Shown: in pieces, positions 21,447-54,252 of the stretch | Layout: every line of letters begins with the position of its first letter | Position numbering within the stretch: position 1 is the stretch's first letter | Origin: an uncultured Acidobacteriota bacterium | GTDB taxonomy: Bacteria; Acidobacteriota; UBA6911 | Assembly (NCBI GenBank): GCA_963827655.1 | Contig: CAWHCF010000013.1 | Location: 32,001-96,000 of the forward strand | DNA: 64,000 bases | Direction: 5' to 3' | Position numbers and translations under genes: made by a program | Notes under the pieces: generated by a model | The model's input: the letters and a program-made list of their open reading frames with translations, nothing else | Database searches by the model: none | What the model was told of the DNA's origin: nothing

Positions 21447-24400
21447 TCATCTTTGCAAGCTCTTCATGGCAGATGTCTTTTTTACTTGGTTCCGTCTTCG
21501 GACTTCCTCGTCCGTAGCTGCCGCGCCAGAGTTTCACCGTACTGTCGACACTTCCTGCGGCCAATCCTTTGCCATCCGGCGAAAATGCCACTGACGAGAC
21601 CATACCAACTCTAAGTCCGTTGAGAGTGACCATTTCCTGCCCTGTGATCAAATCCCAAAGCTTCACGGTCCGATCATAACTTCCGGAAACCAACCTCTTG
21701 CCGTCCGGCGAAAATGCCACTGAAGAGACCGGCTGCGTATGCCCCTTGAGAGTAAGCATTTCCTGTTCCGCGACCACGTCCCAAAGCTTAACGGTCCGGT
21801 CATAACTTCCCGAAGCCAACCTCTTCCCGTCCGGCGAAAATGCCACTGAACGAGACCGGCTCCGTATGCCCCTTGAGAGTAAGTGCTTCCTGCCCCGTGA
21901 CCACGTCCCACAGCTTCACAGTTCGGTCACAACTTCCCGAAGCCAATCTCTTCCCGTCCGGCGAAAATGCTACTGAAGAGACCGCACGCCGCATGCCCCT
22001 TGGAGAGTGAGCACTTCCTGCCCCGTGGCCACATCCCACAGCTTCACGATTGCGTCACGACTTCCCGAAGCCAACCTCTTGCCGTCTGGCGAAAATGCCA
22101 GTGACCGAACCTGACATGCCCCTTGAGAGTGAGCACTTCCTGCCCCGTGGCCACATCCCACAGCTTCACGGTTCCGTCATAACTTCCCGAAGCCAACCTC
22201 TTGCCGTCTGGCGAAAATGCCACTGACGAGACCTCCTGCCGCATGTCCCTTGAGAGTTGAGCAGTTCCTGCCCGGTGGCCACATCCCACAGCTTCACGGT
22301 TCGGTCATGACTTCCCGAAGCTAACCTCTTGCCGTCTGGCGAGAATGCCACAGAAGAGACCAGATCCGCATGCCCCTTGAAAGTAAGCAGTTCCTGCCCC
22401 GTGGCCACATCCCACAGCTTCACGGTTCGGTCATAACTTCCCGAAGCCAACCTCTTGCCGTCTGGCGAGAATGCCACTGAAGAGACCAGATCCGCATGCC
22501 CCTTGAGAGTGAGCACTTCCTGCCCCGTGGCCACGTCCCACAGCTTCACGGTTCGGTCATAACTTCCCGAAGCTAACCTCTTGCCATCGGGCGAAAATGC
22601 CACTGAAGAGACCAGACTCCGCGTGCCCCTTGAGAGTGAGCAGTTCCTGTCCCGTGGCCACGTCCCACAGCTTCACCGTTCGGTCATAACTTCCCGAAGC
22701 CAATCTCTTGCCATCTGGCGAAAATGCTAATGACAGGACCAGTTCCCACGTCTAGAGAGTGCCTTCCGTGCCCACTCCCACAACTTCTCGGCTAGGCTTC
22801 CCGAAGCCAACCTCGCGCCATCCAGCGAAAATGACGGGACTAACTCCGGATTTCCCCTGAGAGTGAGCAGTTCCTGTCCCGTTGCCACATCCCACAGCTT
22901 CAAGGTTAGGTCAGGACTTCCCGAAGCTAACCTCTTGCCGTCGGGCGAAAATGCTACTGACGCGAAGCCTCGCCGCGATGCCCCTTGAGAGTAAGCACTT
23001 CCTGCTCCCGTGGCCACATCCCACAGCTTCACGGTTCGATCATCACTTCCCGAAGCCAACCTCTTGCCGTCCGGCGAAAATGCTACTGACAGAGACCTCC
23101 CCTGCATGCCCCTTGAGAGTCAGTACGTTCCTGCCCCGTGACCACATCCCACAGCTTCACGGTTCGGTCACGACTTCCCGAAGCTAACCTCTTGCCGTCT
23201 GGCGAAAATGCTACTGAAGAGATCAGATCCGCATGTCCCCTCGAAAGTGAGCACGTTCCTGCCCAGTGGCCACATCCCACAGCTTCACGGTTCGGTCATA
23301 ACTTCCCGAAGCCAACCTCTTGCCGTCTGGCGAAAATGCCACTGAAGAGATCTGCCCTCGCATGCGGCAATGTGAATAGGTCGCCATGACAGAGTCGCCA
23401 GAAGTAATACCATTCAAAGCCGCGCAAATCCTCCTGGCCAGGCTTGGGCAAATGAGCCGTCAAGCAGCTCCCGCATACGCGCCAATGCTCGCTGTTTCCC
23501 AGGCTTGCTGAGCCAGGTTCATGTGTGCTGCATAAAGGAGCCGACGATTGGCCTGCTCCTGCTGAACCGCGCGATTGCGTTGCACGATCGAAACCACCGC
23601 GAAGACTGGCGATCACGAGAACAATGAGGGCCGCAACTCCCGCCGCGCGTAATAAACCGCGCCGATAGGCCGCGCGCTGGCGTCGCAGTTCGGCGTCGGG
23701 CATGTTCTCGGTGATCCACGCGCGGTCGAATACACGCTGCGTAAATCCGATTCCGCACCCTCAGGCTGACCATCCTCAACCCGCGTGATGCCCGACAGCC
23801 GAAGGATGCTGACCAGCGGGTTGGTCTCGTCGTCGCGGCACGCGCTTCTTTCGATGCACCTGCGCGTAGAGACTCAGCAACCCGGCCAGATCGACTTCGC
23901 TCCGCAGCATCCGCTCGCGCACGAACAGCAGGTTGTCGTCCCGCTCCCGCGCCCGGCGCGAAAAGAACAGCTCCTCGCATATCCGATCCACACCCTCGGG
24001 TCGCGTTCACGCTCGCGTCTTCGGCCACCGCCTGGCAAAGCCGCTGCGTCAGGTACGGATGCCCGCCGGTCCAATAAAGAATCCGCTTCGAGCAGCGCTC
24101 GCCGCGAGCTTCTCCTCGCGCCTTAGCCCCTGCGCCAGGGGTGCGGCTTCTGCCTCGGTGAAGTCGTGCAGCTCAATGCGCTGCCCAATGTTGAACGGCG
24201 TCGTACGCGTGTCCCGGATCAGATCCGAAGGCGTCGCCACGCCCGAGCAGGCAAAAGGTCAGTCGCTCCAGCTCCGGTTCTTCGCGTGCGGCGGTTGTAG
24301 AACTCCCGAATCCCGGCAAAGAACTCATCGGTCGAAAAGGGAAGGCTGCGGACCGAATCGATCTCGTCGATGAAGATCACCACGCGACCGACACAGCGGC

Positions 24401-24805
24401 GCAATATCACCTTCCGGATTGCCTGCAGTCCACCGCTGCAGCGGGCCGAGTCGGGTCTCGTCTTGCCAGAAATCCTCGAGCTCGTCTTCCAGATCGAGCT
24501 GCTGCCCGATCTGGCGTGAGCAGGCCGCCATACCACTGCTCGGCGCTGAGGTTCTGTCCGATCGCGGTCAGATCGAGCACGGCCACGCCGATTCCTTCTT
24601 CGCGCAGCCGCGCCGCCGTGCGCACCATGAGGGAGGATTTACCCATCTGCCGGGCGGTCAGGACGTAACAGAACTTGCCCTTGTTTGAGTCCTTCGTATA
24701 GCTCGGTGTCGGCCTGCCGCTCGACGTAGCAAGGCGGCATCGCGCCGCAGAGTCCCGCCGGTGACGTAGAAACCGCTGTTGAAGCTCGAGCCTGCTCGCG
24801 CTCAT
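21447..24805 (-). CDS. AAA_35-type P-loop NTPase fused to about 15 WD40 repeats (heavily frameshifted: sequencing error or pseudogene)
   Basis: Fragments [40 protein letters not shown], a hydrophobic segment, DLRGFEWYY, then repeated [22 protein letters not shown]. Confidence 0.8.
21525..23365 (-). repeat. Tandem ~126-bp WD40-encoding repeats with high internal DNA identity
   Basis: About 15 occurrences of the AFSP-encoding cga(a/g)aatg core at roughly 126-bp spacing; near-invariant cacagcttcacggttc and cttcccgaagccaacctcttg blocks. Confidence 0.95.
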
Positions 24806-27028
24806 AGCAAATGTTTCTCCAGATACGTTGGCGTAAAGCTGACAGCGAGGCTTCACAGATTGCGCCGACTCACCTGACATCAAGCCCTGCACTGCGCAGA
24901 CGGTAAAAGCTCTCCGGACTAGGGCACGGCTGACCTCGCAGCACCCCCCGCACCACCTCACACAGAGCAGCGTCCTGCGCTGAGAGAGACGAGCATTCGG
25001 CGCAAATGATCGCCGAAAGGTCCTTCATCGTGATCGGCCTGAGCTTCGAAGGCGGGAAGGTCCGAAGCCATGAGTCGCCATCTCGTGCAGACCACGGCGG
25101 ACAAGGTAGGGATGACCGCCCACCAGCCGGTAATAACGCGCCAGCTCCGCCTTGTTTCTGAGCGGGGAACCATAGCGCTGGTTAAGTTCTTCTACTTGTT
25201 GGAAGGTGAAATCTTCGAGCCATAGTCGGGTTCCAACGTTGAACGGCGATTGGTTCAGGTCGGTGATAAACAGGTGCGCCTCGGTCGCATAGGCTATGGC
25301 GAGCGTGAGACGCTGCCACGGACCGGCAGGATCGAGCGCCCGCCTGTTGTGCCAGGAACGAAAGAGTCCGAAGACCTCGCTGCCAAAACTCGCAGGTGAA
25401 AAGCCGAGTCGACTTCATCCAGCCCCCAGACGATGGGCGACCCGACGTTGGCAAATACCTGGCGCCGCAAGTATCGCTCGAAGTTGATGCTGGAGCTGAG
25501 ATGGGGATTCCATGCCTCATGGGGAAACACATCGAGTCGAGCTGGTCCGCAAGCAATTCTGCCAGCGTCAGAAGTAATTTGTCGATCGATTGCAGATAAG
25601 CCGCGCTGAGGTTCTGAAAATCGGTGAGCACTACCCGCGCCCCTGCCTGTCGCGCCTTCTGCAAACCTCGAGCCAGCAGCGATGTCTTGCCCACCTGGCG
25701 CGCCCCTTTGACCAAAACAATGCTGTCCTGGCGCGCAATGGCAGAGTGGAATTCGATATCTGTGCGTCGAACAATGTAAAAATCAGAATCCAGCGCGACG
25801 GCTCCACCCACAGGCTCAAGCTTCCCGCCGGAAGGTGTCGGATGAGTGGGCCCAGTCGGGCTCCGATGGGCTGAGCGGCTGGGGCGGTGGTTGGTCCTCT
25901 TTGGCGTGCTCTACAGTCTGTGGCGCGTCCCGCTTCAGCCTGGCCTCAAGCTCCAGCTCGAGCCTCAGGCTTTTCAGATCGATCAGCAAGTCCATCGAGA
26001 CCTGGTAGCGCTCTTCACGGTCTTTCGCCAGGGCCTTGCTCACAATTCTTTCGAGCTCCTGGAGGAATCTCCCGAGTGTAGCGCGCCAGCGGCGGGGGCT
26101 GCTGATTCAAGATCGCGGCCATCACCTCGGCGGACGTAACCCCTTCAAACGGCTCACGTCTCGCCGCCATTTCATAGAGCACCACCCCGAGGCTAAAAAT
26201 GTCAGTCCTGCCGTCAACCGGCCGTCCCATTATCTGCTCCGGGGACATATACCGAGCCGTTCCCATCACCTTGCCCGGGTCGGTGTCCAGCTGTCCGATT
26301 GTTGAGACTTTGCGATCCTTGACGGAGGGTCGCTCGATCAACTTGGCCAGTCCAAAGTCCAAAACTTTGACGTACCCATCGCGCCTCACCATGATGTTCT
26401 CGGGCTTGATGTCGCGATGCACGATTCCAACCTCGTGGGCTCCCGACAGAGCGCTCGCGACTTGAACCGCCACGTCGAGAAGTTCCCGCACCTTGATCGG
26501 TGAGCCCGCGAGACGCTCCCGCAGCGTCTGCCCGTCGATGAATTCGGTGGCAATGAAATACGCTCCCTCGACCTCTCCGATCTCGAATATGGTAAGGATG
26601 TTGGGATGATTCAGCGCCGATGCGGCTCGAGCTTCCCGCTCGAAGCGTCGCACCCGTTCGCGATCCTGAGTGAACTCCCTGGGCAGAAACTTGAGCGCAA
26701 TTTTACGTCCTAGACGGGTGTCCTCCGCGAGATAGACCTCCCCCATCCCTCCGGCGCCAAGCAAGGAAAGTACCTGGTAGTGGCCAATCTGTCGCCCAAG
26801 CAAAGACGCGGTTTTGTCCGCGGCGATTGCTTCGGCTTCAACGTGCAAAGCGGGCGCGGTCAGGAAGCTGCCCGCTTGGTTGTGGGCCGCAAGTAGAGCC
26901 TCCACTTCCCTTCGTAATTCCTCATCGCTGCCGCAGGCTCTCTCGACGAACGAGGGGCGCTGGCTCTCTTCGCATTCGAGCGCGGAATAGTAGAGTTCGT
27001 TGATACGCTGCCACCGTTCAGGCTTCAT
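24802..27028 (-). CDS. Ser/Thr protein kinase fused to an AAA_35-type NTPase (frameshifted)
   Basis: [10 protein letters not shown]-terminus; [19 protein letters not shown] and YMSPE; then [30 protein letters not shown] and RCQLY. The stop overlaps the next ATG (ATGA at 24802-24805). Confidence 0.82.
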
Positions 27029-27294
27029 CTTATGCCCGAGGCTGACTTCGAAAAGGCTGAGAGGGCGCCGACCTGCACTGCCGCGCCCTCCTGGTCACAC
27101 TTCTGATAGTGCTTGCAGGTCTCAATTAGTAAGGCGTGGACCCTATCTCAAAGCTGCCAAGGAATCGAAAGATTGTTCGGTTACCCGTCTCCGCTGATCA
27201 GTCAAATGATATCGGCTCAGGTAAAGAGCAAACGCAATAGCAAGAGTTACCGCAAAGACGCCAAAACGCGAAGAGAACTATGGAGTCGATGATG

Positions 27295-27876
27295 TTAGCT
27301 GTTCTTCGTAACTTGTCCCAGCTCGCGATACAGCCAGGCTCGCGCAAGGTTCCACTCTCGCATGACCGTTCGGGGGGATACCTTCAGTACTTCAGCGGCT
27401 TCCTCCACACTCAGTCCACCAAAGAACTTCAACTCAACAATCTGGGCTTTGCGTGAGTCCAGCTTGGCCAGACTCTTCAATGCATCATCCAGTGCAATCA
27501 AGTCCCGTCCCCGGTCATGTGATAGAGTCGCAGCTTCCTCGAGCGAAACCTGCACCGCTTTCCCCCCTCGCTTGGTGTAGCGACGCGACCGGGCAAAATC
27601 GACCAGGATTCGCCGCATTAGCTGGGCTGCTACTCCGAAGAAATGCGCGCGGCTTTGCCAGTGCACATTTTTCCAGTCAACCAGGCGTAGGTAGGCTTCA
27701 TTGACCAGAGCAGTGGTCTGCAGAGCATGGCCGACCCGCTCTCGCTGCATGTACCTTCTGGCCAGCCGATGCAACTCCCCGTGGACCAGCGGGAGTATTT
27801 GGTCAAGAGCCGTCTGATCACCGTCGCTCCAAGCCAGGAGCAGCTGTGTGACTTCTTTGTTAGAGGATGTCGCCAT
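27295..27876 (-). CDS. ECF-type sigma-70 factor (kinase-associated, planctomycete/acidobacterial type)
   Basis: VTQLL, LQTTALVNEAYLRL, MRRILVD, ELKFFGGL and ARAWL motifs. Confidence 0.93.
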   Translation of the reverse strand: MATSSNKEVTQLLLAWSDGDQTALDQILPLVHGELHRLARRYMQRERVGHALQTTALVNEAYLRLVDWKNVHWQSRAHFFGVAAQLMRRILVDFARSRRYTKRGGKAVQVSLEEAATLSHDRGRDLIALDDALKSLAKLDSRKAQIVELKFFGGLSVEEAAEVLKVSPRTVMREWNLARAWLYRELGQVTKNS

Positions 27877-28174
27877 TCCGCTTCCGAGGTTTAAACATCG
27901 CCGCTGAGGACCAGCTGCTCGAGTCTAGCATCGATCCTAACAGTCAGGCCAATATGCTCTAAAATCACCCCGCGATGAGGCTTGGAGTCTAATACGGTTT
28001 GGGCTCCCTGGATTGGACCAAGCTTGTTTAGGGCTCTGCTTACGAGGTGGCGGCTTCCTTAATATTTACGGCGCGCACCTGCAACGCGCCCTCCCGGTTG
28101 AGATTCGATGCTGTTTGCTTTAGTCTAAAAATATCGATGTTATCAGGCAATCGAAAAGGGAAGCGGCGGGTTCT

Positions 28175-28232
28175 TGGAGTGCGGTAGCTTGTTAAGCTTG
28201 TTACCGCCCTGGTTGGCGAAGCTTGCTTCGCC
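28175..28232 (+). repeat. REP-like palindromic element TGGAGTGCGG...TACCGC...GGCGAAGCTTGCTTCGCC
   Basis: Two hairpins; a related copy lies inverted at 42441-42487. Confidence 0.7.
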
Positions 28233-28313
28233 TTGTGCAAGCAACGAACTTGCGAATTGCATGCCTCTGGTTTTCGGGCGCCGTGTCACCTGGAGAGGAG
28301 GCGAGGAGCCGAA

Positions 28314-29189
28314 ATGACAGCAGCGACGAAAGCAGCGCCGGCGCGTCGGGACACTATCGATCAAGTGATCGAAGCGCTGAACGATGTCGTGGACAGCGCA
28401 CGGCGCGAAGGGAGTCGCCTGGGGTATTTTGCCGCGCTGTACCGCAACGTAACCATCGAGGTAAAGCGAGGCATCGCTCAGGGACGATTCGACGACGGCG
28501 GACGCATGGAGCGCTTCGACGTGATATTTGCGGGTCGCTACCTGGCGGCGCTTGAGTCTTACCGCCGGGGCGAGCGAACCAGTCAATGCTGGGTGACCTG
28601 CTTTCAAAGCTGCCCTCAGTGGCGGCCGATCGTCCTTCAGCACCTGCTGCTCGGAATGAACGCCCACATCAATTTTGACCTCGCGGTCGCCGCTGCAACG
28701 ACGGCGCCCGGTCAGGAACTCGCGGCTCTCAGGCGCGATTTCGATGAGATCAACAATATCCTTTCGGCCATGATCGGAGGCGTCCAATACCGTCTCTCCC
28801 TGATCTGGCCCTGGATGTGGCTGTTGGACCGCATCGGCGGCAGAACACAAAACGCCATCCTCAACTTCTCCATCGAGCACGCGCGGCGGGCGGCCTGGGC
28901 GGCCGCCGAACGCCTGGCTTTCATCGATCCGGGGCGGCGCGATGCCGAGCTCGAAGAGCTGGACCGAAGCGCAGCGCGGATTGCTCATCTGGTCCGGAAT
29001 CCTCCTCTGACCATTCGCCTCGCCAACCTCTGGGTCCGAATGGGCGAACTGCGCGACATCCGAAAGATCATTGACTGTCTCTGTCTAGGGCTTCACCGTC
29101 TCCGTGTCCTGGCGGCTGGCTTTTTTCTGCACGCGCCAAGGAGCTCCAGGGGGGGGCTGCGCTTGACTTTGCCAAACCGCGTGTGCTAG
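28314..29189 (+). CDS. DUF5995 family protein (true 3' end may be about 29088)
   Basis: LGYFAALY, FAGRY and LLLGMNAHINFDL motifs; GAGGAG RBS. Confidence 0.8.
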   Translation: MTAATKAAPARRDTIDQVIEALNDVVDSARREGSRLGYFAALYRNVTIEVKRGIAQGRFDDGGRMERFDVIFAGRYLAALESYRRGERTSQCWVTCFQSCPQWRPIVLQHLLLGMNAHINFDLAVAAATTAPGQELAALRRDFDEINNILSAMIGGVQYRLSLIWPWMWLLDRIGGRTQNAILNFSIEHARRAAWAAAERLAFIDPGRRDAELEELDRSAARIAHLVRNPPLTIRLANLWVRMGELRDIRKIIDCLCLGLHRLRVLAAGFFLHAPRSSRGGLRLTLPNRVC

Positions 29190-33044: not shown

Positions 33045-34121
33045 CTACCGCAGGGTGCGGATGAAGCTGCGGATGACCTCGCTCTTTTCGTCCGGTCGTT
33101 CCGTGTATTGATGGACTTCCAGCCCACCGATGTCGCTGGGCAGCTCGAGATCACTTTCTCTAACCAGCAGGAGCAGGCGGTCGAGTCCCAGTCGGCCCCA
33201 GAACCATCCCAACTCGAGCCAGACGTTCTGGCGCGCCCGCTTTCGGAGGTTGGTTCCACCGGCGATCCCTCCGAGATCGTCGGGCGTCGCCACGACGATC
33301 GCGCCCTGCCCCTCGCCGGCGAGCCGTTCAAGCTTCGCCGGTAAGGTAGCGCCGGACACGAACTCCTCCTTCATTACCGTGAGTTGCACATTCAGCTCGT
33401 CCTCGTGTCGATTGAGAAAATTCTCCAGCAATTCGTGATCGAGGCCGTGTCCGTGGACGATGAAGATCTTCAACCGACGAGGGCCTTCGGCCCCGAGAGC
33501 TTTGAGTGCCAAGGACCGAACAGTGTCGTTCCAGGGATTCTCGAACTGGCTCAACAGATCCGGCTCGAGCATATGAGCGCGCCAGTCGTCCGATGCGCGG
33601 TTGAATGTATTCCGAAACTCATAGATCAGTTCGGCTCCCGCCCCGCCGAACGCGCCTACAGGAACGACGCGGCGGCGGCTGACCGCGCCGGCGATTCCCG
33701 CGTAATAGGCCTTTTCCGCTCCCCCGAGAATTACCGCCGCATCGGAATGCCGAATGACGCTCAGCTTGAGGAAAGCCGGCTCATCCGGACCCCAGCGCTC
33801 CGTCAGGAACGTCAGAGTGGACCGCCAATTTGCGAACAGGTCCGCTTCTTGAATTTTCGGCCGCACGAGCAGGATTTTGCCGCGGTTGTTCGCTGGGTCG
33901 AGCTTGACCGCCTGAGCAGCACCCTCGACGGCATGGTAGTCGGCGGTGCCGGGCTCACCCGAGGCGACAACCAGGGTGTGGCCGAGAGTGAAGATCCGGG
34001 AGCCAAGCGAACGACACGCCTCAGGGAAGATCTCGTGGTTCTTCGTGTGCCACTTGCTCTCGCCGGCCGTCTCGTGAGTTCCGGCCGCCGCCACCAGACC
34101 GCCGAGGAACGCGATATTCAT
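33045..34121 (-). CDS. SLOG-like domain fused to a CAP12/Pycsar-type TIR-like domain
   Basis: C-terminus: KIFIVHGH, VVATPDD, RARQNVWLELGWF, LPSDIGG. N-terminus: IAFLGG, LGHTLVV, AVILGG, VVPVGAFGGAG. Confidence 0.8.
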   Translation of the reverse strand: MNIAFLGGLVAAAGTHETAGESKWHTKNHEIFPEACRSLGSRIFTLGHTLVVASGEPGTADYHAVEGAAQAVKLDPANNRGKILLVRPKIQEADLFANWRSTLTFLTERWGPDEPAFLKLSVIRHSDAAVILGGAEKAYYAGIAGAVSRRRVVPVGAFGGAGAELIYEFRNTFNRASDDWRAHMLEPDLLSQFENPWNDTVRSLALKALGAEGPRRLKIFIVHGHGLDHELLENFLNRHEDELNVQLTVMKEEFVSGATLPAKLERLAGEGQGAIVVATPDDLGGIAGGTNLRKRARQNVWLELGWFWGRLGLDRLLLLVRESDLELPSDIGGLEVHQYTERPDEKSEVIRSFIRTLR

Positions 34122-34380: not shown

Positions 34381-34516
34381 CCGACGGGCGCGATCCTCAG
34401 CGTGTTAGCCTCGCCACGGAATTGTGATTTATAATGGGCGCGGTCGGCGCCGCCGGGCGCAGCAAGATTCACTGTCGGTGGCGCGGACCAAACCAGCTTG
34501 CATCAGGGGGGAAGAG

Positions 34517-37500
34517 ATGCATAGGTTCACCAGAGTTTGCCGGCACGCCGGATGGATTGGCATTCTGTCTCTGTTTGCGGTCTCCACTGTTTATGCTCAG
34601 GTCTCCACCGGGAGCATTGCAGGCCAAGTCACGGATCAGTCGCGCGCCGTGGTGCCGTCGGCCGCTGTGACCCTGACCAATGAGGGAACGGGCGCCGAGA
34701 GAAACACGAAAACCGATTCGGCGGGCAACTACGTGTTTCCGCTGGTTGCGCCGGGCACCTACCTGCTGCGGGCGGTGGCGCCAGGGTTCAGCTCGTATGA
34801 AGTTTCCGGCCTCGAGGTGCAGGTGGCGCAACAGGTAACCCACAATCTTCAGCTCCGGGTGGGAGACACTGCCACCAAACTCGAAGTGGTGGCAACCACT
34901 CCCGTGCTGGAACAACGAAATGCGGAAATAGGGCAAGTCATCGGACAGAGGGAAGTGGTCGAGCTGCCGCTGAACGGACGCAACTTTCTTGATCTCGCCA
35001 AGCTGGTTCCAGGGGTCACCGAGCTGGCCGGGACCTCGCAAAGCAACGGGCTGGCGATCAACGGGCAGCGCGCCAACCAGATCGGCTTCTACTTCGACGG
35101 CGTGGACACGCGGACCGAGACAAGCGGCAGACCGGCCTTCGCGCCCTCGATCGAGGCGATCCAGGAATTCAAGATTCAGCAGAATGACTTCGCCGCGGAA
35201 TATGGGCGAAACCCGGCCGGCATCAATCTTACGCTGAAGCCGGGAACGAACGAGTTTCATGGCAGCCTGTTCGAGTTTCTGAGGAACGATGCTCTCGACG
35301 CGCGCAGCTTTTTTTCACCCAGCGTGGACCCGCTGCGCCGAAATCAGTTTGGCGCGGTGGTGAGCGGGCCGGTGGTGCGCAACAGGACATTCGTGATGGG
35401 CGATTATGAGGGATTGCGCACCCGGCGGGCGAATACGTTGTTCCGGAGTGTTCCGACCAACGAACAGCGAGAAGGGAACTTCGCGGGCGGCCCGCAAATC
35501 TTCGATCCGCTCACGCTGAATCCGTCAACCAACACGCGGCAGCCCTTTCCCGGCAATGTCATTCCCAAGACGCGCTTCGGCCAGATGGGAAACTCGAGCC
35601 TGAAATACTATCCCGCGCCGAATACACCGCCGTCGGGCGGCTTCAACTACGTGGTCAGCGATTCAGGGCGCAATGACGGGGATCAGTTTCACACCCGGAT
35701 CGATCACCAGATCGGTGAGAAAGACTCGCTGTTTGGAAGGTATTCCTACAGCCAGGGAGAAGTAATATCTCCTGCCGGTTTACCCTTGACCGGCGGACTG
35801 CAGGAAACGAAGGCGAACAGCATCACGGTCCAGGAATCGCACACGTTCAGCGCGACCAAAGTCAACCAGTTTCGGGTCTACTGGACCTATTTCAAGGACC
35901 GTGCGGGGTTTCCTCTTGCCGATCGTAATCTCGCCGCGGAGGAGTTCGGCCTGCTGAATCTCACTCCGGCGAGCACGGCTTACGGCCTGCCTCAGCTGAT
36001 TGTGACCGGGCTCACGACCATGGGCGCTAATCCGTTTCAGCCGTTCGGGCCGCGGGAAAACATGTATGGTCTGGCCGACGATTTCAGCTGGATCGCGGGC
36101 CGCCACGCGATGAAGTTCGGGTTTCGACGGGCGTTACTATCGTCCGGCCGCGCTGGTCCAGCAGACACCGAACAGCATTCTGACTTTCGAAAACCGGTTC
36201 ACGAACCAGCCCGGCGTTTCCGGAACGGGAAGCGCGGTAGCCGACCTCTTGCTCGGGTTTCCCTATTCCGGCCGGGCTACCCAGTTCGCGGAGAGCAACG
36301 GGTGGGTGACGCTGAAGTATTACTACTTCGGATTCTACGTTCAGGACGAGATCCGGCTGACTCCAACCTTCACGATTAACGTAGGGCTGCGCTACGAGTA
36401 CCAGACTCCTTACTACGAGCGGTTTGGCGACCTCGCGATATTCGACCTGGCGAACTCCAGGTTTCTGAAGCTGGACGAAGATATCGACCGGCTGCACGAT
36501 CCGGATCTCAACAACTTTGCTCCGCGTGTCGGATTCGCTTACTCTGTGACACCCAGGACGGTGTTGCGAGCCGGCGCCGGAGTCTTTTACGGCCAGCCGC
36601 GCGGATCCGAATTCTCGTCGTTCCAGTTGTCGCCGCCGTTTGTCATCGATGGCACTCTTGTCTCCAATCCGCTGACGCCCGATCTGATCGGCAGGCTATT
36701 CCCCAGGCCACAGGTGCGCGACCCCGCGACTGGCCAGATACTCCTGTCGCCCAACACCAACGTTTTCTCGCTCGATCCCGGTTTCCGCACCAACTACACC
36801 TATCAATGGAATTTCGGCATCCAGCAGGAGCTGGCCAATGGCTTGCTCTTCGAAGCGGCGTACGTCGGCAACAGCGCCCACAAGCTCACGGGGCGCGATC
36901 TCCCCAACCAGGCCGTCCCCGACCCGGACCCGTCGAGGCCTACGCCGGTAATCAGCCGCCGTCCCAACCCGAACATCGGCGATGTCAGCTATGTCAGTTC
37001 GCTCGACAATTCCAACTACCACGGTTTGAATGTGAAGCTGAACAACCGGTTCGCCAACGGTATTTCGGTCCTGGGCGCGTACACTTACTCCAAGGTGATG
37101 GGAATCGGCGGCGCGCTATTCGGCGACCAGTCCCGCCAGGCGGACGCGCGCAATCGCCGGGCCGAGTACGCGCGGCTGGAATTCGACCAGAGCCAGCGGC
37201 TGACCGTCGCCTGGATCTATGAGCTTCCGTTTGGAAGGGGCAAGGCGCTAGGCTCGAACCTCTCCGGAGCGGCGGGGGCGTTCGCGGGCGGCTGGTCCAT
37301 CCAGGGCGCGTACACGGCGCACTCGGGATTCCCGTTGACGCCGGCGTCCAGCGTTTCTTCGAACGTGGGCAGGCAGGACGTGAATCGGCCCGATCGCCTC
37401 TGCGACGGCAACCTGGGCGGAGACGAGCGCACGCTGAACCGCTGGTTTGACACCAGCTGTTTCGCGAATCAGCCCTTCGGGCGCTTCGGCACTTCCGGAA

Positions 37501-37742
37501 ACGGGGTGATCATCGGCCCGGGCGTGAACAACTTCGACTTCACGATCATGAAGAACACCGCAATTCCGCTGGGATCCCGCGAACCGGCGACGCTGCAGTT
37601 TCGCGCGGAATTCTTCAACGGATTCAACCACCCCTCGTTCGGAGACCCCAATCTAGGCACCGGCACCGCACAATTCGGCGTGATTCGCAGCACGCGGATC
37701 AATGGCCGGGAGATCCAGCTGGCGCTGAAGTTCTTGTTCTGA
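34517..37742 (+). CDS. TonB-dependent receptor, Oar-like (one frameshift at about 36123)
   Basis: ORFs 34424..36379 and 36249..37742 join (KFG-FDGRYY); ends REIQLALKFLF. Confidence 0.9.
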
Positions 37743-39262: not shown

Positions 39263-40534
39263 TTGCTGCTCGCCGGGCGCTTCCGCTGGTTCATCGCAAT
39301 CCTCCTCTTTCTTGCCTCGGCGCTGAGCTTTTTCGACCGGCAGGTATTGTCGGTGCTGGCTCCCGAGATCCTGGCCGACCTGCGCATGACCAACGTCGAG
39401 TATTCCCATGCAGTGTCGGCCTTCACTCTGGCCTACAGCATCATGTTCACGGTCGGCGGACGGCTGGTGGACTATGTCGGGACCCGTCTGGGACTCGGCC
39501 TGTCGGTTGCGTTCTGGACGGTGGCCAGCCTTCTCCATAGCCTGGTTCAGAGCAGCCCGGAGCTGAGTTTCTTCCGATTCCTGCTCGGAGCGGGAGAAGG
39601 GGGCTGTTTTCCCGGCGCAGCCAGGGGGATCCTGGAATGGTTTCCGGCGCGGGAACGCGCGCTGGCCATGGGCATCGCCACCACGGGCGGTTCGGCGATC
39701 GGCGCTGTGCTGGCGCCGCCGCTGATCGTGTGGGCTGCGGCGCAGACCGGGTGGCGGGGCGCCTTCGTCGTGACGGGGTTGATCGGCGCGGTGTGGGTTT
39801 TCCTGTGGTTTGCGTTCTACCGGCAACCCGAACAGTCACGCTTTGCTACGGACGTCGAACGAAACCACATACTGGCCGATCGTACCCGGCAGACTGATGA
39901 GCGTGCGCGGCGTCCCTGGCCGCTCGCAAAGCTTCTTTCCCGCAAAGAAGTCTGGGGCGTCACCCTGACACGCTTCCTGCTCGACCCGGTCTTCTATTTC
40001 TACATGTTCTGGATCCCGCAGTATCTGCATCAGGAGCGGGGCGCCTCGCTGCAGGACATTGGACGCCTGACGTGGATTCCCTTTTTCACGCTCGGCGTTT
40101 CTTCGCTGGCAGGCGGCGCCGTGTCGGACATTCTGGTGCGGCGCGGCTGGACCACCGGCCGCGCGCGCAAGACCATCATGGCGGCGGCGGCCTTTCTGAC
40201 GCCGGTCTCGATTCTGGCGTTATATGCTCCGGATTCGTTCTGGGCTGTGGTTCTTCTCGGCGTCCTGATGTTCGCGCACGGATTCTGGATGACCAACTAC
40301 ATGACACTCATCGCCGACCTGTTCCCGCCTTCCACTGTCGCGACGGTGGTGGGTCTCACCGGAACGGCGGGGGGCATCGGAGGTTTTCTGTCGAGCCTCA
40401 TGGTTGGCCGATTCGTCGAAGCCTGGTCATTCACGCCGGCGTTCGTGATTTGCGGGATACTCTACCCGGTCGGGCTGGTGATCATTCTCGTGACGATTCG
40501 GCGCGCGGAAGCCCAAGTGGAGTTGCAACAGTAG
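39263..40534 (+). CDS. MFS transporter (ExuT/ACS-like)
   Basis: FFDRQ, GRLVDYVG, RFLLGAGEGG, EWFPARERA and FYMFWIP motifs. Confidence 0.9.
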   Translation: MLLAGRFRWFIAILLFLASALSFFDRQVLSVLAPEILADLRMTNVEYSHAVSAFTLAYSIMFTVGGRLVDYVGTRLGLGLSVAFWTVASLLHSLVQSSPELSFFRFLLGAGEGGCFPGAARGILEWFPARERALAMGIATTGGSAIGAVLAPPLIVWAAAQTGWRGAFVVTGLIGAVWVFLWFAFYRQPEQSRFATDVERNHILADRTRQTDERARRPWPLAKLLSRKEVWGVTLTRFLLDPVFYFYMFWIPQYLHQERGASLQDIGRLTWIPFFTLGVSSLAGGAVSDILVRRGWTTGRARKTIMAAAAFLTPVSILALYAPDSFWAVVLLGVLMFAHGFWMTNYMTLIADLFPPSTVATVVGLTGTAGGIGGFLSSLMVGRFVEAWSFTPAFVICGILYPVGLVIILVTIRRAEAQVELQQ

Positions 40535-40691
40535 CATCACCCCACTAACCACGAAGACTCGAAGACACCAAGAAACGCGAAGTCCCACGACGGTTCGACC
40601 CGTGGCAGCTCAGTTTCTTAACGGAGCATCGGCATCGTGGTATGGTGCTGTGACTTCCTTGAGTGCCAACCCCAAAACACTGGAGGCTAGA

Positions 40692-51547: not shown

Positions 51548-54252
51548 CTATTCCGCGCGCAGCGCCGTGAGCGGTTCGACGCGCGCTGCCCGCCAAGCCG
51601 GTATTACGCAGGCGATGAGCGCAGCCGCAGCCAGTACCGCCGGAACGGTGACAAAGGTGACGAGGTCGTACTGGTTCGTTTGATAGAGCAGCGAGGCCAC
51701 GAACCGGGTGAGGCCGAGGGAGACGACAAGGCCGGCCGCGAGGCCCAGCGCGACTAGTTGTGCGCCCTGTGCCACGATCATTCGCATTACCGTGCGCCGC
51801 TCGGCACCGAGGGCCAGCCGCACGGCGATCTCCCTGGTCCGCTGCGTGATCGTGAATGCAAGGAGGCCGTAGAGACCGATCGAAGCGAGGAACAACGCGA
51901 CCGCGGCGAACGCTCCTACGAGCAGCGTACTGAAGCGTTGAGGCGCGACAATATCGCTGACCTGTTGGTCCATCAGCTCGATGTGCTGTATCGCCAAGTC
52001 TCGATCGAGATTGGAAATCGCCTGCCGAATCAGTGCTACCAGTGCGCGCGGTTCACCCTGAACAAGGACGGCTGCTTTCACGTCACGGCCGAACTGATTC
52101 ACGGCGCCATTGAGAAAGAAATCGGGAAACTGCCGGAACGGCTCGTACGCGTGGATCCCCGGCTCTGCGCCGATCGGACCATCAGCAACATTACCTGCGA
52201 CGCCGACAACCGTCAGCCACGGAGTCTGGCTCGCAGCGATCCCCCACTTCAATCTCCTGCCGACCGGATCCTGTCCCGGCCAGAACAGATCAGCCAGCTT
52301 CTCGTTGATGATCACGACCCTGCGGTTTTGTCCGTGCTCGTCGTTGTTAAAGAATCGGCCTCGTCTGAGCGTCATTCCAAGGGTCTCGAAGTATGGGCCA
52401 TGCACCCACGTCAGGTGCGTCGTCGGCTGCGCGCCGTCGGGAATGTTCGCGCCTTCGGGTGTAAACGCGCGTCGCTCGTACGTCGTCAGCGGAAGATCCG
52501 TGGCCAAGGCCACGGATCGCACCCCTGGGAGAGCCAACAGGCTCCGGTAGAGCGACTCATGAAACGTGCGCACGCTGGTTGCCGTTGCGTAGAACGTTCG
52601 CGGCAGCGTCATCGACGCGGCGACCACCTGCGCCGGTCGGAAGCCCATATCGGTTGACATCAGCGTCCCGAAACTCCGAATGAAGAGCCCCGCTGCTACC
52701 AGGAGCACGAACGCGAGTCCTACGGTCGACACGACGAAACCGCGCTGGATACGAAGCTTCCTGGGTGCGAGCGTCGTTCGGGGCGTGTCGTCGCGTAGCG
52801 AGTTGCCCGGACTGCCACGGCCCAAGCGTTGTCAGCGGAAGGAGTGCGAAGATGACGGCCGTGGCGAGACACATCACGCCGGTAAAAGCGAGGACGCGAA
52901 GATCGATCGCGACATCGTGAAGGCCCGGAATCGTCCGCGCAATGACCGACGGAATTGCTTTAACGGCCCAGTAGGCGGTTGTAATTCCAGTCACACCTCC
53001 GGCCGCGGAAAGCAACAACGCCTCGCACAAGAGCAACTGGACGAGCCGACTCCGGCGAGCGCCGAGCGCCGTCCGCACGGCGAACTCGCGCGACCGACCG
53101 GCGACACGACTCAGAATGAGGTTTGCGACATTGGCACACGCGACCAACAGGACAAGCCCCACCGCGGCCATGAGCATCAGCAGCGGCGCTTCGAATTGCC
53201 CAGAAATTTCCTCGCGCAGCGGCTGCGCCGCGAGTCGCGGTGAAAATCCGACGTTGCGGAGCATGGGCGGATAGTTCTCAGCGATCTGTCCGGCGAGCAC
53301 ATCCAACTCCGCCCGAGCCGCCTGGAGCGAGATTCCGTCCTTCAGTCGCGCGATGACACTGTTGTTGTGCATGCTTGCGCGTTCAGCGCGTTCTCGGTCC
53401 GTAAATGCGATCGGCACCCAGATATCTGCGGGCTGACTGTTGAATTGAGAACCACGCCGCGGAAACACAAATGTCGCTGGCATGATCCCGATCACGGTGT
53501 ACGGCTGGCGATCGAGCTGTATGCTCTGACCGACAATGGAGGGATTGGCGGCATAGCGCCTCTGCCACAGGCCCCAGCTCAGAATGGCAACATTCACGCC
53601 GGGACGATCCTCTGCCATCGAGAACGAGCGGCCGACAGTCGGCCCAATTCCCAGCGTGCGAAACAGATCGGCGGAGACCTTCGCGCCTTCTATACGTTCC
53701 GGATTATCGCCACCCGAGACTTCGAATGGGACATTCCGATATGCTGCAGCTCTCTCGAACGACTGCTGATATCTTCGGAAATCGTCGAAATCCAAGGCGG
53801 AGAAGGGGAACCTGTCGATGCCACGTTGCTGAAAATCCTTCTTGCACCGACACGAGCCGGTCCTCGTCGGTATATCCGAGCGGGCGAATCAGTGCGGCAT
53901 TGATGATGCTGAAGAAGGCCGTGTTCGCACCGATGCCGAGGCCGAGTGTGAGGACAACGACGAAGGCAAACCCGCGGCTGCGCCGAAGCGTCCGCGCGGC
54001 ATACCTGAGATCCTGAACCAGAGTGCTCATTCTCGGGGCGAACGCCCATGCCTCACGCAGGTCTTCCCGAACCTTTGTGACGTTGCCAAACCGCCGGTGC
54101 GCGTCGGCACCAGCATTGATTGCTCCGGACGTACGAAGCTGATCCTCTCGCATAGCGAGGTGAAACGCCACTTCGTCCTGGAGGTCTTGCTCCGACTGCC
54201 GCCGCAGGAGCGCCGACAGACGAAGACGCAGACTGTTCAGCCACTCAGTCAC
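51548..54252 (-). CDS. ADOP-type ABC transporter permease (frameshifts at about 53820 and 52820)
   Basis: QDLRYAAR, LGLGIGANTA, LLVACANVANL, REFAVRTALGA, QRTREI and PAWRAARVEP, spread over three ORFs. Confidence 0.88.

Follow-up and report, generated by a model that had tools for sequence, protein, structure and literature searches.

Organization of the Locus

The window analyzed here is a stretch of 64,000 nucleotides (64 kb) from a contig of an uncultured Acidobacteriota bacterium (CAWHCF010000013.1), and our subject is a locus of three genes within it, all on the minus strand. The first gene encodes an extracytoplasmic function (ECF) sigma factor, the second (G1) a Ser/Thr kinase fused to an ATPase module of the AAA_35 family (PF14516), and the third (G2) another AAA_35 protein, which carries a WD40 array (Table 1). 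An initial annotation of this region had listed the sigma factor, the kinase-AAA_35 fusion, an ATGA overlap between the two ATPase genes, and about 15 WD40 repeats, and all of these are present as described, down to coordinates and motifs. The transmembrane helix of G2 is a feature that the annotation did not contain.

Table 1. Features of the sigma-G1-G2 locus in window coordinates
Feature	Position	Strand	Evidence
ECF sigma factor, 193 aa, intact open reading frame	27295..27876	-	PF07638 Sigma70_ECF, 1.6e-57; TIGR02999
G1: ~80-aa N-terminal extension, Hanks-type Ser/Thr kinase, linker, AAA_35 module	24802..27028	-	Pfam and alignment to P0001
G1 kinase domain	26000..26779	-	Pkinase 1e-46, residues 106-331 of the piece 27094-26018
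AAA_35 module of G1	24805..25821	-	PF14516 in three frame-shifted pieces
ATGA overlap, G1 stop TGA 24804-24802 / G2 start ATG 24805-24803	24802..24805	-	Sequence
G2: AAA_35 module paralogous to that of G1, transmembrane helix, coiled coil, 15 WD40 blades	21447..24805	-	Alignment and Pfam
AAA_35-like module of G2	23730..24780	-	hhalign against the G1 module
G2 transmembrane helix, [18 protein letters not shown] / AVVSIV	~23583..23655	-	Translation and hydrophobicity of homologues
WD40 array, 15 blades	21500..23400	-	FSPDG/FSLDG anchors; Pfam WD40 in 9 pieces

The sigma factor matches TIGR02999 (Sig-70_X6) with an E value of 6.7e-67 and a score of 224.9 bits, against a cut-off of 126. Its gene ends at 27295, and the Hanks-type kinase gene adjoining it starts at 27028 and closes with a TGA stop at 24804-24802. 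The translated G1 kinase contains intact copies of the catalytic motifs HRDIKPEN and DFG, together with [11 protein letters not shown] and the ALK lysine. The AAA_35 module that follows contains a Walker A motif (GARQVGKT), a Walker B motif (LDEVD), and a GGHPYL motif; its Pfam pieces cover profile positions 4-94, 100-143, and 143-247 (E values of 4.3e-16, 1e-4, and 1.4e-28), and pieces scoring 59.1 and 100.1 bits, against a gathering score of 27 bits, place G1 in the family. Intact homologues of G1 cover positions 4-330 of the 331 in PF14516 (E values of ~1e-70 to 1e-82, 205-276 bits). A database query with one AAA_35 piece returned 4670 protein matches, and proteins of ~745 aa that combine Pkinase and AAA_35 predominate among the 120 matches listed. 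The module of G2 has a P-loop (ARQMGKSS), a Walker B motif (FIDEID), and the sequence GGHPYLTQ, and its window fragments match PF14516 weakly (2.3e-4 and 1.3e-3; 20.6 and 18.1 bits against the gathering score of 27). The initial annotation had expected hidden Markov model searches to recover PF14516 twice; this held for G1, which scores above gathering, but not for the pieces of G2, whose homology was established by profile comparison as set out below.

Beside the sigma factor, no member of a known anti-sigma family was seen. Directly upstream of it on the same strand is a 281-aa open reading frame (ORF) at 28143-28988, which has no Pfam match and overlaps a 318-aa ORF on the opposite strand.

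Frameshifts in G1 and G2

The window copies of both ATPase genes are interrupted by frameshifts. From 27028 to 21388, the longest ORF is 337 aa, and there are 23 stop-to-stop pieces with coding signal across all three minus frames. The disruption sets in suddenly at 26059; the preceding 1.8 kb of sigma factor and kinase sequence is clean. We mapped the breaks with a custom frameshift-aware protein-to-DNA alignment. Once nine frameshifts are bridged, G1 is 97.2% identical (717/738) to the intact 739-aa protein P0001, which confirms that kinase and AAA_35 module are fused in one gene, an arrangement common among the homologues. Eight of the nine breaks are 1-nt insertions, at 26059, 25860, 25407, 25391, 25063, 24981, 24887, and 24832, and the ninth is a 1-nt deletion at 25537. 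In the ATPase part of G2, 13 insertions of 1 nt were bridged in aligning residues 1-440 to the homologue P0227 (71% identity), another lies near 24770, and the stop codon at 21449-21447 emerges only once the frame is corrected. Of all 23 mapped indels, 22 are 1-nt insertions away from homopolymers. The reading frames can be reconstructed, as the initial annotation had proposed, but the shifts so repaired are probably assembly errors and not biological lesions.

Over 23300-27900, the window was compared with metagenome contigs from four soil or sediment runs of separate studies (X1-X4). A 1326-nt contig from X2 covers 25001-26330 with 27 mismatches and six gaps (net -4), and its gap pattern is exactly what the mapped indels predict for that segment, five of +1 and one of -1. 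The short contigs from X1, X3, and X4, with 1-4 mismatches each, are likewise free of the extra bases, and metagenome contigs skip one base at six sites within the G2 N-terminus. The near-identical contig encoding P0001 was not returned by the scans of genome or metagenome contigs, in which the best segment identity was ~72%.

Stop-free frames of at least 250 aa make up 78% of the genome, and the window stretch is one of its six longest ORF-poor stretches, as is a paralogous locus on contig C18. The kinase domain is split between frames in 13 of the 76 kinase loci of the genome, nearby single-copy genes are whole (an 870-aa Omp85/POTRA protein, for example), and it is in multi-copy families that the broken genes of this genome are concentrated. 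One-sided insertions are more typical of long-read consensus sequence than of gene decay, and bacterial gene decay is expected to favor deletions. The frameshifts in the window are most likely errors of the assembly consensus rather than decay, given the insertion bias, the intact homologue at 97.2% identity, the contigs free of indels, the local character of the disruption, and the clustering in multi-copy families. We note that insertion-dense long patches in multi-copy genes of draft genomes can mimic pseudogenes.

Apart from the window locus, the genome has a single AAA_35 locus, on contig C18 (~40300-46144, plus strand), which encodes a paralogous G1-G2 pair that shares 73% DNA identity with the window locus over 2.1 kb. 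Its sigma factor gene lies downstream of G2, not upstream of G1. The locus is also rich in indels, 12 of 17 being +1. Two further accounts of the frameshifts were rejected. Among the inserted bases of G1 (G, C, T, G, G, A, G, G), no four-letter word or context recurs, which speaks against quadruplet or programmed-frameshift decoding. A duplicated pseudogene predicts frameshift sites common to the window paralogue (contig C13) and that of C18, and the sites differ.

Some side observations concern the condition of this and related assemblies. Elsewhere in the window, an outer membrane protein gene (CarboxypepD_reg/OMP_b-brl_4, 34424-37742, plus strand) from a multi-copy family is divided between two overlapping ORFs, one matching profile positions 1-306 and the other 346-838, and at 51548-53795 (minus strand) two overlapping ORFs, each with MacB_PCD and FtsX, look like a single duplicated-permease gene broken by a frameshift. 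The genome is reported to be 90.3% complete, a value that broken genes may depress. An ENA record, P0002, presents G1 and G2 as one protein of 1896 aa in which an out-of-frame G1 C-terminus runs into G2; this fusion is probably a frame error in its contig.

The Two ATPase Modules

We compared the modules through two profiles, one built from 32 G2 N-termini (A2) and the other from 32 G1 C-termini (A3). By hhalign, A2 matches A3 with a probability of 99.9% and an E value of 3.5e-34 (27% identity over 327 columns), and the two align over their whole length, with P-loop, Walker B, SPFNVG/TPFNIG, and GGHPYL all coinciding. The modules of G1 and G2 are paralogues, in agreement with the view of the initial annotation that the two NTPases form a pair. 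The modules are strongly conserved across phyla, at a mean column identity of 50-57%.

By sequence, no PDB entry matched either profile significantly; RecA and KaiC P-loops came closest, at E values of at least 0.005. AlphaFold models of the modules (predicted local distance difference test, pLDDT, 92.3 with a predicted TM-score of 0.87, and pLDDT 88.2) have a nucleotide-binding domain followed by helical and winged-helix domains. For both modules, the top Foldseek matches are the archaeal AAA+ ATPases 2qen and 2fna, followed by ORC/Cdc6 proteins. CED-4, MalT (8bob), Avs3, Avs4, Roq1, and NRC3 were also found at E values of ~1e-6, so that signal transduction ATPases with numerous domains (STAND) score near ORC/Cdc6; the matches to CED-4, MalT, Avs, and ORC/Cdc6 span ~350-400 columns. 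The domains and motifs that characterize STAND proteins are present, namely the nucleotide-binding, helical, and winged-helix domains, Walker A and B, and a GxP-like motif ([13 protein letters not shown], GGHPYL), whereas effector, NTPase, and sensor repeats are not combined on one polypeptide. Judged from these models, AAA_35 is an ORC/STAND-like nucleotide-binding, helical, winged-helix module.

For complex prediction, we paired the G1 module with residues 1-362 of G2 from one homologous locus (L033), using our own alignments. The interface score ipSAE was 0.69, 0.69, and 0.70 in the G1-G2 runs, against 0.00 for the best of three controls; the runs had at least 88% of their contacts in common, and the pLDDT of the partner was at least 85. 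The ipSAE mark used for reference is reached by 116 of 157 solved complexes and by 2 of 215 mismatched pairs, counts that apply only approximately here because the alignments were our own. In the predicted interface, G1 residues 113-127, 152-172, and 190-204 face the Walker A (49-58) and Walker B (143-147) segments of G2 in a head-to-tail geometry like that of AAA+ assemblies, and the invariant G1 residues R162 and R168 fall within segment 152-172. The prediction supports binding of the G1 and G2 modules to each other. The heteromeric NTPase pair proposed in the initial annotation scores above its controls in silico and is, as a physical complex, a prediction.

Predicted Membrane Topology and WD40 Array of G2

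All 119 G2 homologues contain a 19-residue window with a Kyte-Doolittle value of at least 1.6, at a median position of 384, and 109 of them contain exactly one. The sequence before the helix carries a net charge of +5.5 and that after it one of +1.8. Such a hydrophobic window is missing from 71 of the 78 G1 proteins. Since the ATPase has to be cytoplasmic and the helix separates it from the remainder of the protein, the coiled coil and WD40 array of G2 are most likely outside the cytoplasm. For Planctomycetota proteins with a kinase, a membrane helix, and WD40 repeats, periplasmic WD40 placement has been predicted (PMC11032199).

Tandem Repeats Finder locates the WD40 repeats at 21560-23365 with a period of 128, 14.4 copies, 82% matches, and 5% indels. 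Inserted bases lengthen the repeat unit from 126 to ~128 nt, and at least eight frame changes separate the strong FSPDG/FSLDG anchors. The blades are unusually alike: against the 82% matches in DNA, the 119 homologues have a median lag-42 protein identity of 25% and a maximum of 56%. This similarity suggests recent amplification or homogenization of the repeats in the window. In another G2-like AAA_35 protein, P0124 (1303 aa), the WD40 array is replaced by about ten hydrophobic segments and by PF03739, which we take to be the LptF/LptG permease family; the AAA_35 module can evidently take on varied membrane or sensor parts.

Conservation of the G1-G2 Pair

Genome contigs supplied 79 loci and metagenome contigs another 80, distributed over Acidobacteriota, Verrucomicrobiota, Armatimonadota, and a few other groups. 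Where the contig left room for a downstream gene (at least 700 nt), G2 directly follows G1 at 108 of 136 loci (55/70 from genome contigs and 53/66 from metagenome contigs); a further 8 genome and 14 metagenome loci had no such room. Nine of the 55 adjacent genome-contig pairs have an ATGA-type overlap. Pfam domains were assigned to 72 of 76 G1 proteins, four short partial ones being excluded. The outputs fused to the G1 module are interchangeable: Pkinase in 17 proteins, Pkinase with TIR in 19, TIR in 18, Trans_reg_C in 11, BTAD in 5, and none in 2. Adjacency to G2 is seen with every output type, including 11/11 Trans_reg_C and 5/5 BTAD proteins.

The neighborhood survey of these loci found no conserved third gene besides the sigma factor. 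One candidate, an abundant outer membrane protein family, was rejected, as its presence in seven loci is probably due to chance. At two loci, one G1 gene is followed by two tandem G2 genes (L004, 11343-17881; L007, 11199-17682), an arrangement in which several sensors may serve one transducer.

The sigma factor keeps narrower company. It lies upstream of 11 of the 15 kinase-type G1 genes that carry the N-terminal extension and have room (8/10 on genome contigs, 3/5 on metagenome contigs) and upstream of 1 of 102 other G1 genes. In that exception, L038, which is a frameshifted long-read assembly, the N-terminal extension has been cut off. The three-gene order that the initial annotation sought elsewhere is conserved, then, as far as G1 and G2 are concerned, but the sigma factor accompanies only kinase-type G1 with the extension. 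In the genome of the window itself, 22 of 23 sigma factor genes of this family have a kinase within 1.5 kb, and most of these adjoining kinases start with the same extension, followed by a membrane helix at about residues 330-460 and a long C-terminal tail. The sigma-kinase link is ordinary for this organism; what is unusual is the AAA_35 pair in place of the kinase's own membrane sensor. Because the usual kinase partner of the sigma factor carries its own helix and tail, the sensor is truly split off at the window locus, and a claim of the initial annotation is thereby borne out.

Proposed Mechanism and Alternatives

Taken together, these results suggested to us a split receptor. G2 would be a single-pass membrane receptor, with a WD40 array the size of two propellers outside and the AAA_35 module in the cytoplasm, and G1 a soluble transducer that joins a sensor-free paralogous module to an N-terminal output domain. 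We infer that signaling runs from G2 to G1: upon sensing of a putative ligand, the G2 and G1 modules would pair head-to-tail, as AAA+, ORC, and STAND proteins do, with the conserved G1 arginines facing the nucleotide site of G2. Pairing would switch on the output of G1, which at the window locus is the Hanks-type kinase, and the kinase, presumably by way of the conserved ~80-aa extension, would act on the neighboring ECF sigma factor of TIGR02999 type and so activate transcription. That the locus encodes an intact three-gene, membrane-spanning, split STAND/ORC-like receptor driving a kinase and a sigma factor, its frameshifts being consensus errors, is a reading we hold with about as much confidence as doubt.

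Several points weigh against it. The fraction of sampled words found in any run is at most 0.24, so the comparison contigs come from relatives and not from this strain, and the paralogous C18 locus is broken too. The case for consensus errors was built from assembled sequence rather than from the assembly's own reads, and recent genuine decay is an alternative that we regard as improbable. At 28 of the 136 loci with room, several of them in Verrucomicrobiota, G1 has no downstream G2. The module was found in 0 of 40 related genomes queried with the G1 AAA_35 piece, and because of this absence, the role of the signaling unit in this lineage may be accessory. The outward placement of the WD40 array is read from hydrophobicity and charge bias, and that the kinase phosphorylates the sigma factor is a prediction. 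Finally, the complex was modeled as the heteromeric pair, and its score may mirror the generic packing of AAA+ protomers.

Some of these points can be read as signs of a true pseudogene pair, in which the signaling unit has been lost both here and at C18 and only the sigma factor still functions. More than 30 frame disruptions within 4.6 kb, the broken state of the sole other AAA_35 locus, and the absence of a possibly dispensable module from all 40 relatives would fit such a loss. However, decay that had produced nine indels should have left many more substitutions than the 97.2% identity of repaired G1 allows; 22 of 23 indels are +1 and lie off homopolymers, against the deletion bias expected of decay; near-identical DNA from four studies does not have these indels; and other multi-copy genes of the assembly are split likewise. 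We therefore give loss of the pair little credence. Only slightly better placed, and still unlikely in our judgment, is a scheme in which G1 and G2 work independently, G1 homo-oligomerizing on a cytoplasmic cue and G2 serving as a separate membrane ATPase in another role. AAA+ and STAND proteins commonly homo-oligomerize, the heteromer being the one assembly that our complex prediction covered, and the loci with G1 alone, together with tandem G1 pairs at L046 and L056, would suit this scheme. Under it, though, one would have to explain why G1 lacks a sensor domain and G2 an output domain, why the two are adjacent across all five output types and translationally coupled, and why the modeled heterodimer reaches 0.69 when the best control stays at 0.00.

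The initial annotation had called the locus NLR-like (NLR, nucleotide-binding leucine-rich repeat receptor) and possibly immune-like. In a defense system of this kind, G2 would detect an invader-derived molecule and G1 would execute the defense. The fold does resemble STAND proteins including Avs3, Avs4, and CED-4, a TIR domain is present on 37 of the 72 G1 proteins, and the division into sensor and effector is reminiscent of paired NLRs. Highly alike repeats are also a pattern known from fungal NLRs, and the window WD40 blades are 82% identical in DNA. At 33048-34121 on the minus strand, about 5 kb from the locus, lies a possible defense gene, whose 358-aa product carries a CAP12/Pycsar effector TIR domain (PF10137, 5.7e-21). 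Against a role in immunity, PADLOC-DB 2.0 contains no model for the AAA_35 modules or G2: searches of it returned 0 families for the G2 homologues P0227 and P0121 and for the sigma factor, P0001 matches the PD-T4-6, mad6, and PglW models through its kinase domain alone (residues ~78-400), and the AAA_35 parts of P0016 and P0088 reach just E ~2e-4 to PDC-S01. A single-pass G2 with its sensor behind a membrane helix is unlike an intracellular NLR, 16 of the 72 outputs are DNA-binding, and the output in the window feeds a sigma factor. The loci have no conserved defense or mobile-element neighbors, the genes flanking the window locus are metabolic, and the ATPase modules are highly conserved across phyla. 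An NLR-like defense system is accordingly an explanation to which we assign a low probability, and the immune label is weak for the kinase-sigma version, although, given the TIR-bearing relatives and the alike WD40 blades, parts of the family may have a role in conflict.

Relation to Known Systems

The split receptor may also be one member of a widespread and undescribed class of transmembrane signaling systems, a generalization we offer tentatively and with somewhat less assurance than the reading of the locus itself. An extracytoplasmic beta-propeller receptor would, in such a class, act through nucleotide-dependent hetero-oligomerization of AAA_35 modules, where other systems use histidine phosphotransfer or regulated proteolysis, upon interchangeable cytoplasmic outputs: a kinase directed at an ECF sigma factor, a TIR domain, an OmpR-type winged helix-turn-helix domain, or SARP-type domains. 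If this is true, many soil bacteria have a third route from membrane to gene expression, beside two-component systems and anti-sigma cascades, based on a pair of STAND/ORC-like ATPases and present in Acidobacteriota, Verrucomicrobiota, and Armatimonadota, with thousands of metagenome homologues. Bacteria would then also have their own parallel to sensor/helper NLR pairs, and the evolution of split NLR signaling would become testable in a simple system. The window copy is a poor specimen owing to assembly errors; the family is large and coherent. Text searches, with PF14516 and AAA_35 among the terms and supplements outside their scope, found no published description of the G1-G2 pair.

Among the described systems close to this one are the ECF sigma factors of Acidobacteriota and Planctomycetota that are paired with a kinase carrying its own membrane helix and periplasmic WD40 or tetratricopeptide repeats. 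They share with the window locus the TIGR02999/PF07638 sigma factor, the N-terminal extension, and the gene order. Unlike those kinases, the G1 kinase has neither helix nor repeats and carries AAA_35 instead, and the helix and WD40 array are on G2, which has an AAA_35 module of its own. That kinases regulate ECF sigma factors has been noted (PMC7826278). In cyanobacteria, AAA_35 makes up 2.8% of the accessory domains of sigma factors (PMC11119718); there AAA_35 is likewise tied to a sigma-70 or ECF output but by direct fusion, whereas here the connection would pass through a kinase and a separate sigma factor gene.

With STAND proteins (MalT, AfsR/SARP, CED-4/Apaf-1, Avs, and plant NLRs), the pair has in common the three-tier core, the GxP-like GGHPYL motif, modular outputs, and repeat sensors. 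It differs from them in placing sensor and output on two polypeptides, each with an ATPase module, and in a sensor protein that spans the membrane; moreover, the top structural matches of the modules are archaeal AAA+ ATPases and then ORC/Cdc6 proteins, with STAND proteins following at similar E values. The best structural matches, PABY2304 (2qen; TM-score ~0.6, E 4.6e-10) and SSO1545 (2fna; TM-score 0.47-0.58, E 7.2e-10), are 14-18% identical to the G1 and G2 modules and are stand-alone archaeal proteins with no assigned function. In plant sensor/helper NLRs and in animal NAIP-NLRC4, the sensor and the signaling domain are on separate NTPases. The G1-G2 pair resembles these paired NLRs in its linked paralogous NTPases, one for sensing and one for signaling, and in its predicted hetero-oligomer, and differs from them in being bacterial, in belonging to another NTPase family, and in its membrane-spanning sensor. 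The parts of this system, ECF sigma-kinase signaling and STAND/ORC-like switches, are known, and it is their pairing that is undescribed.

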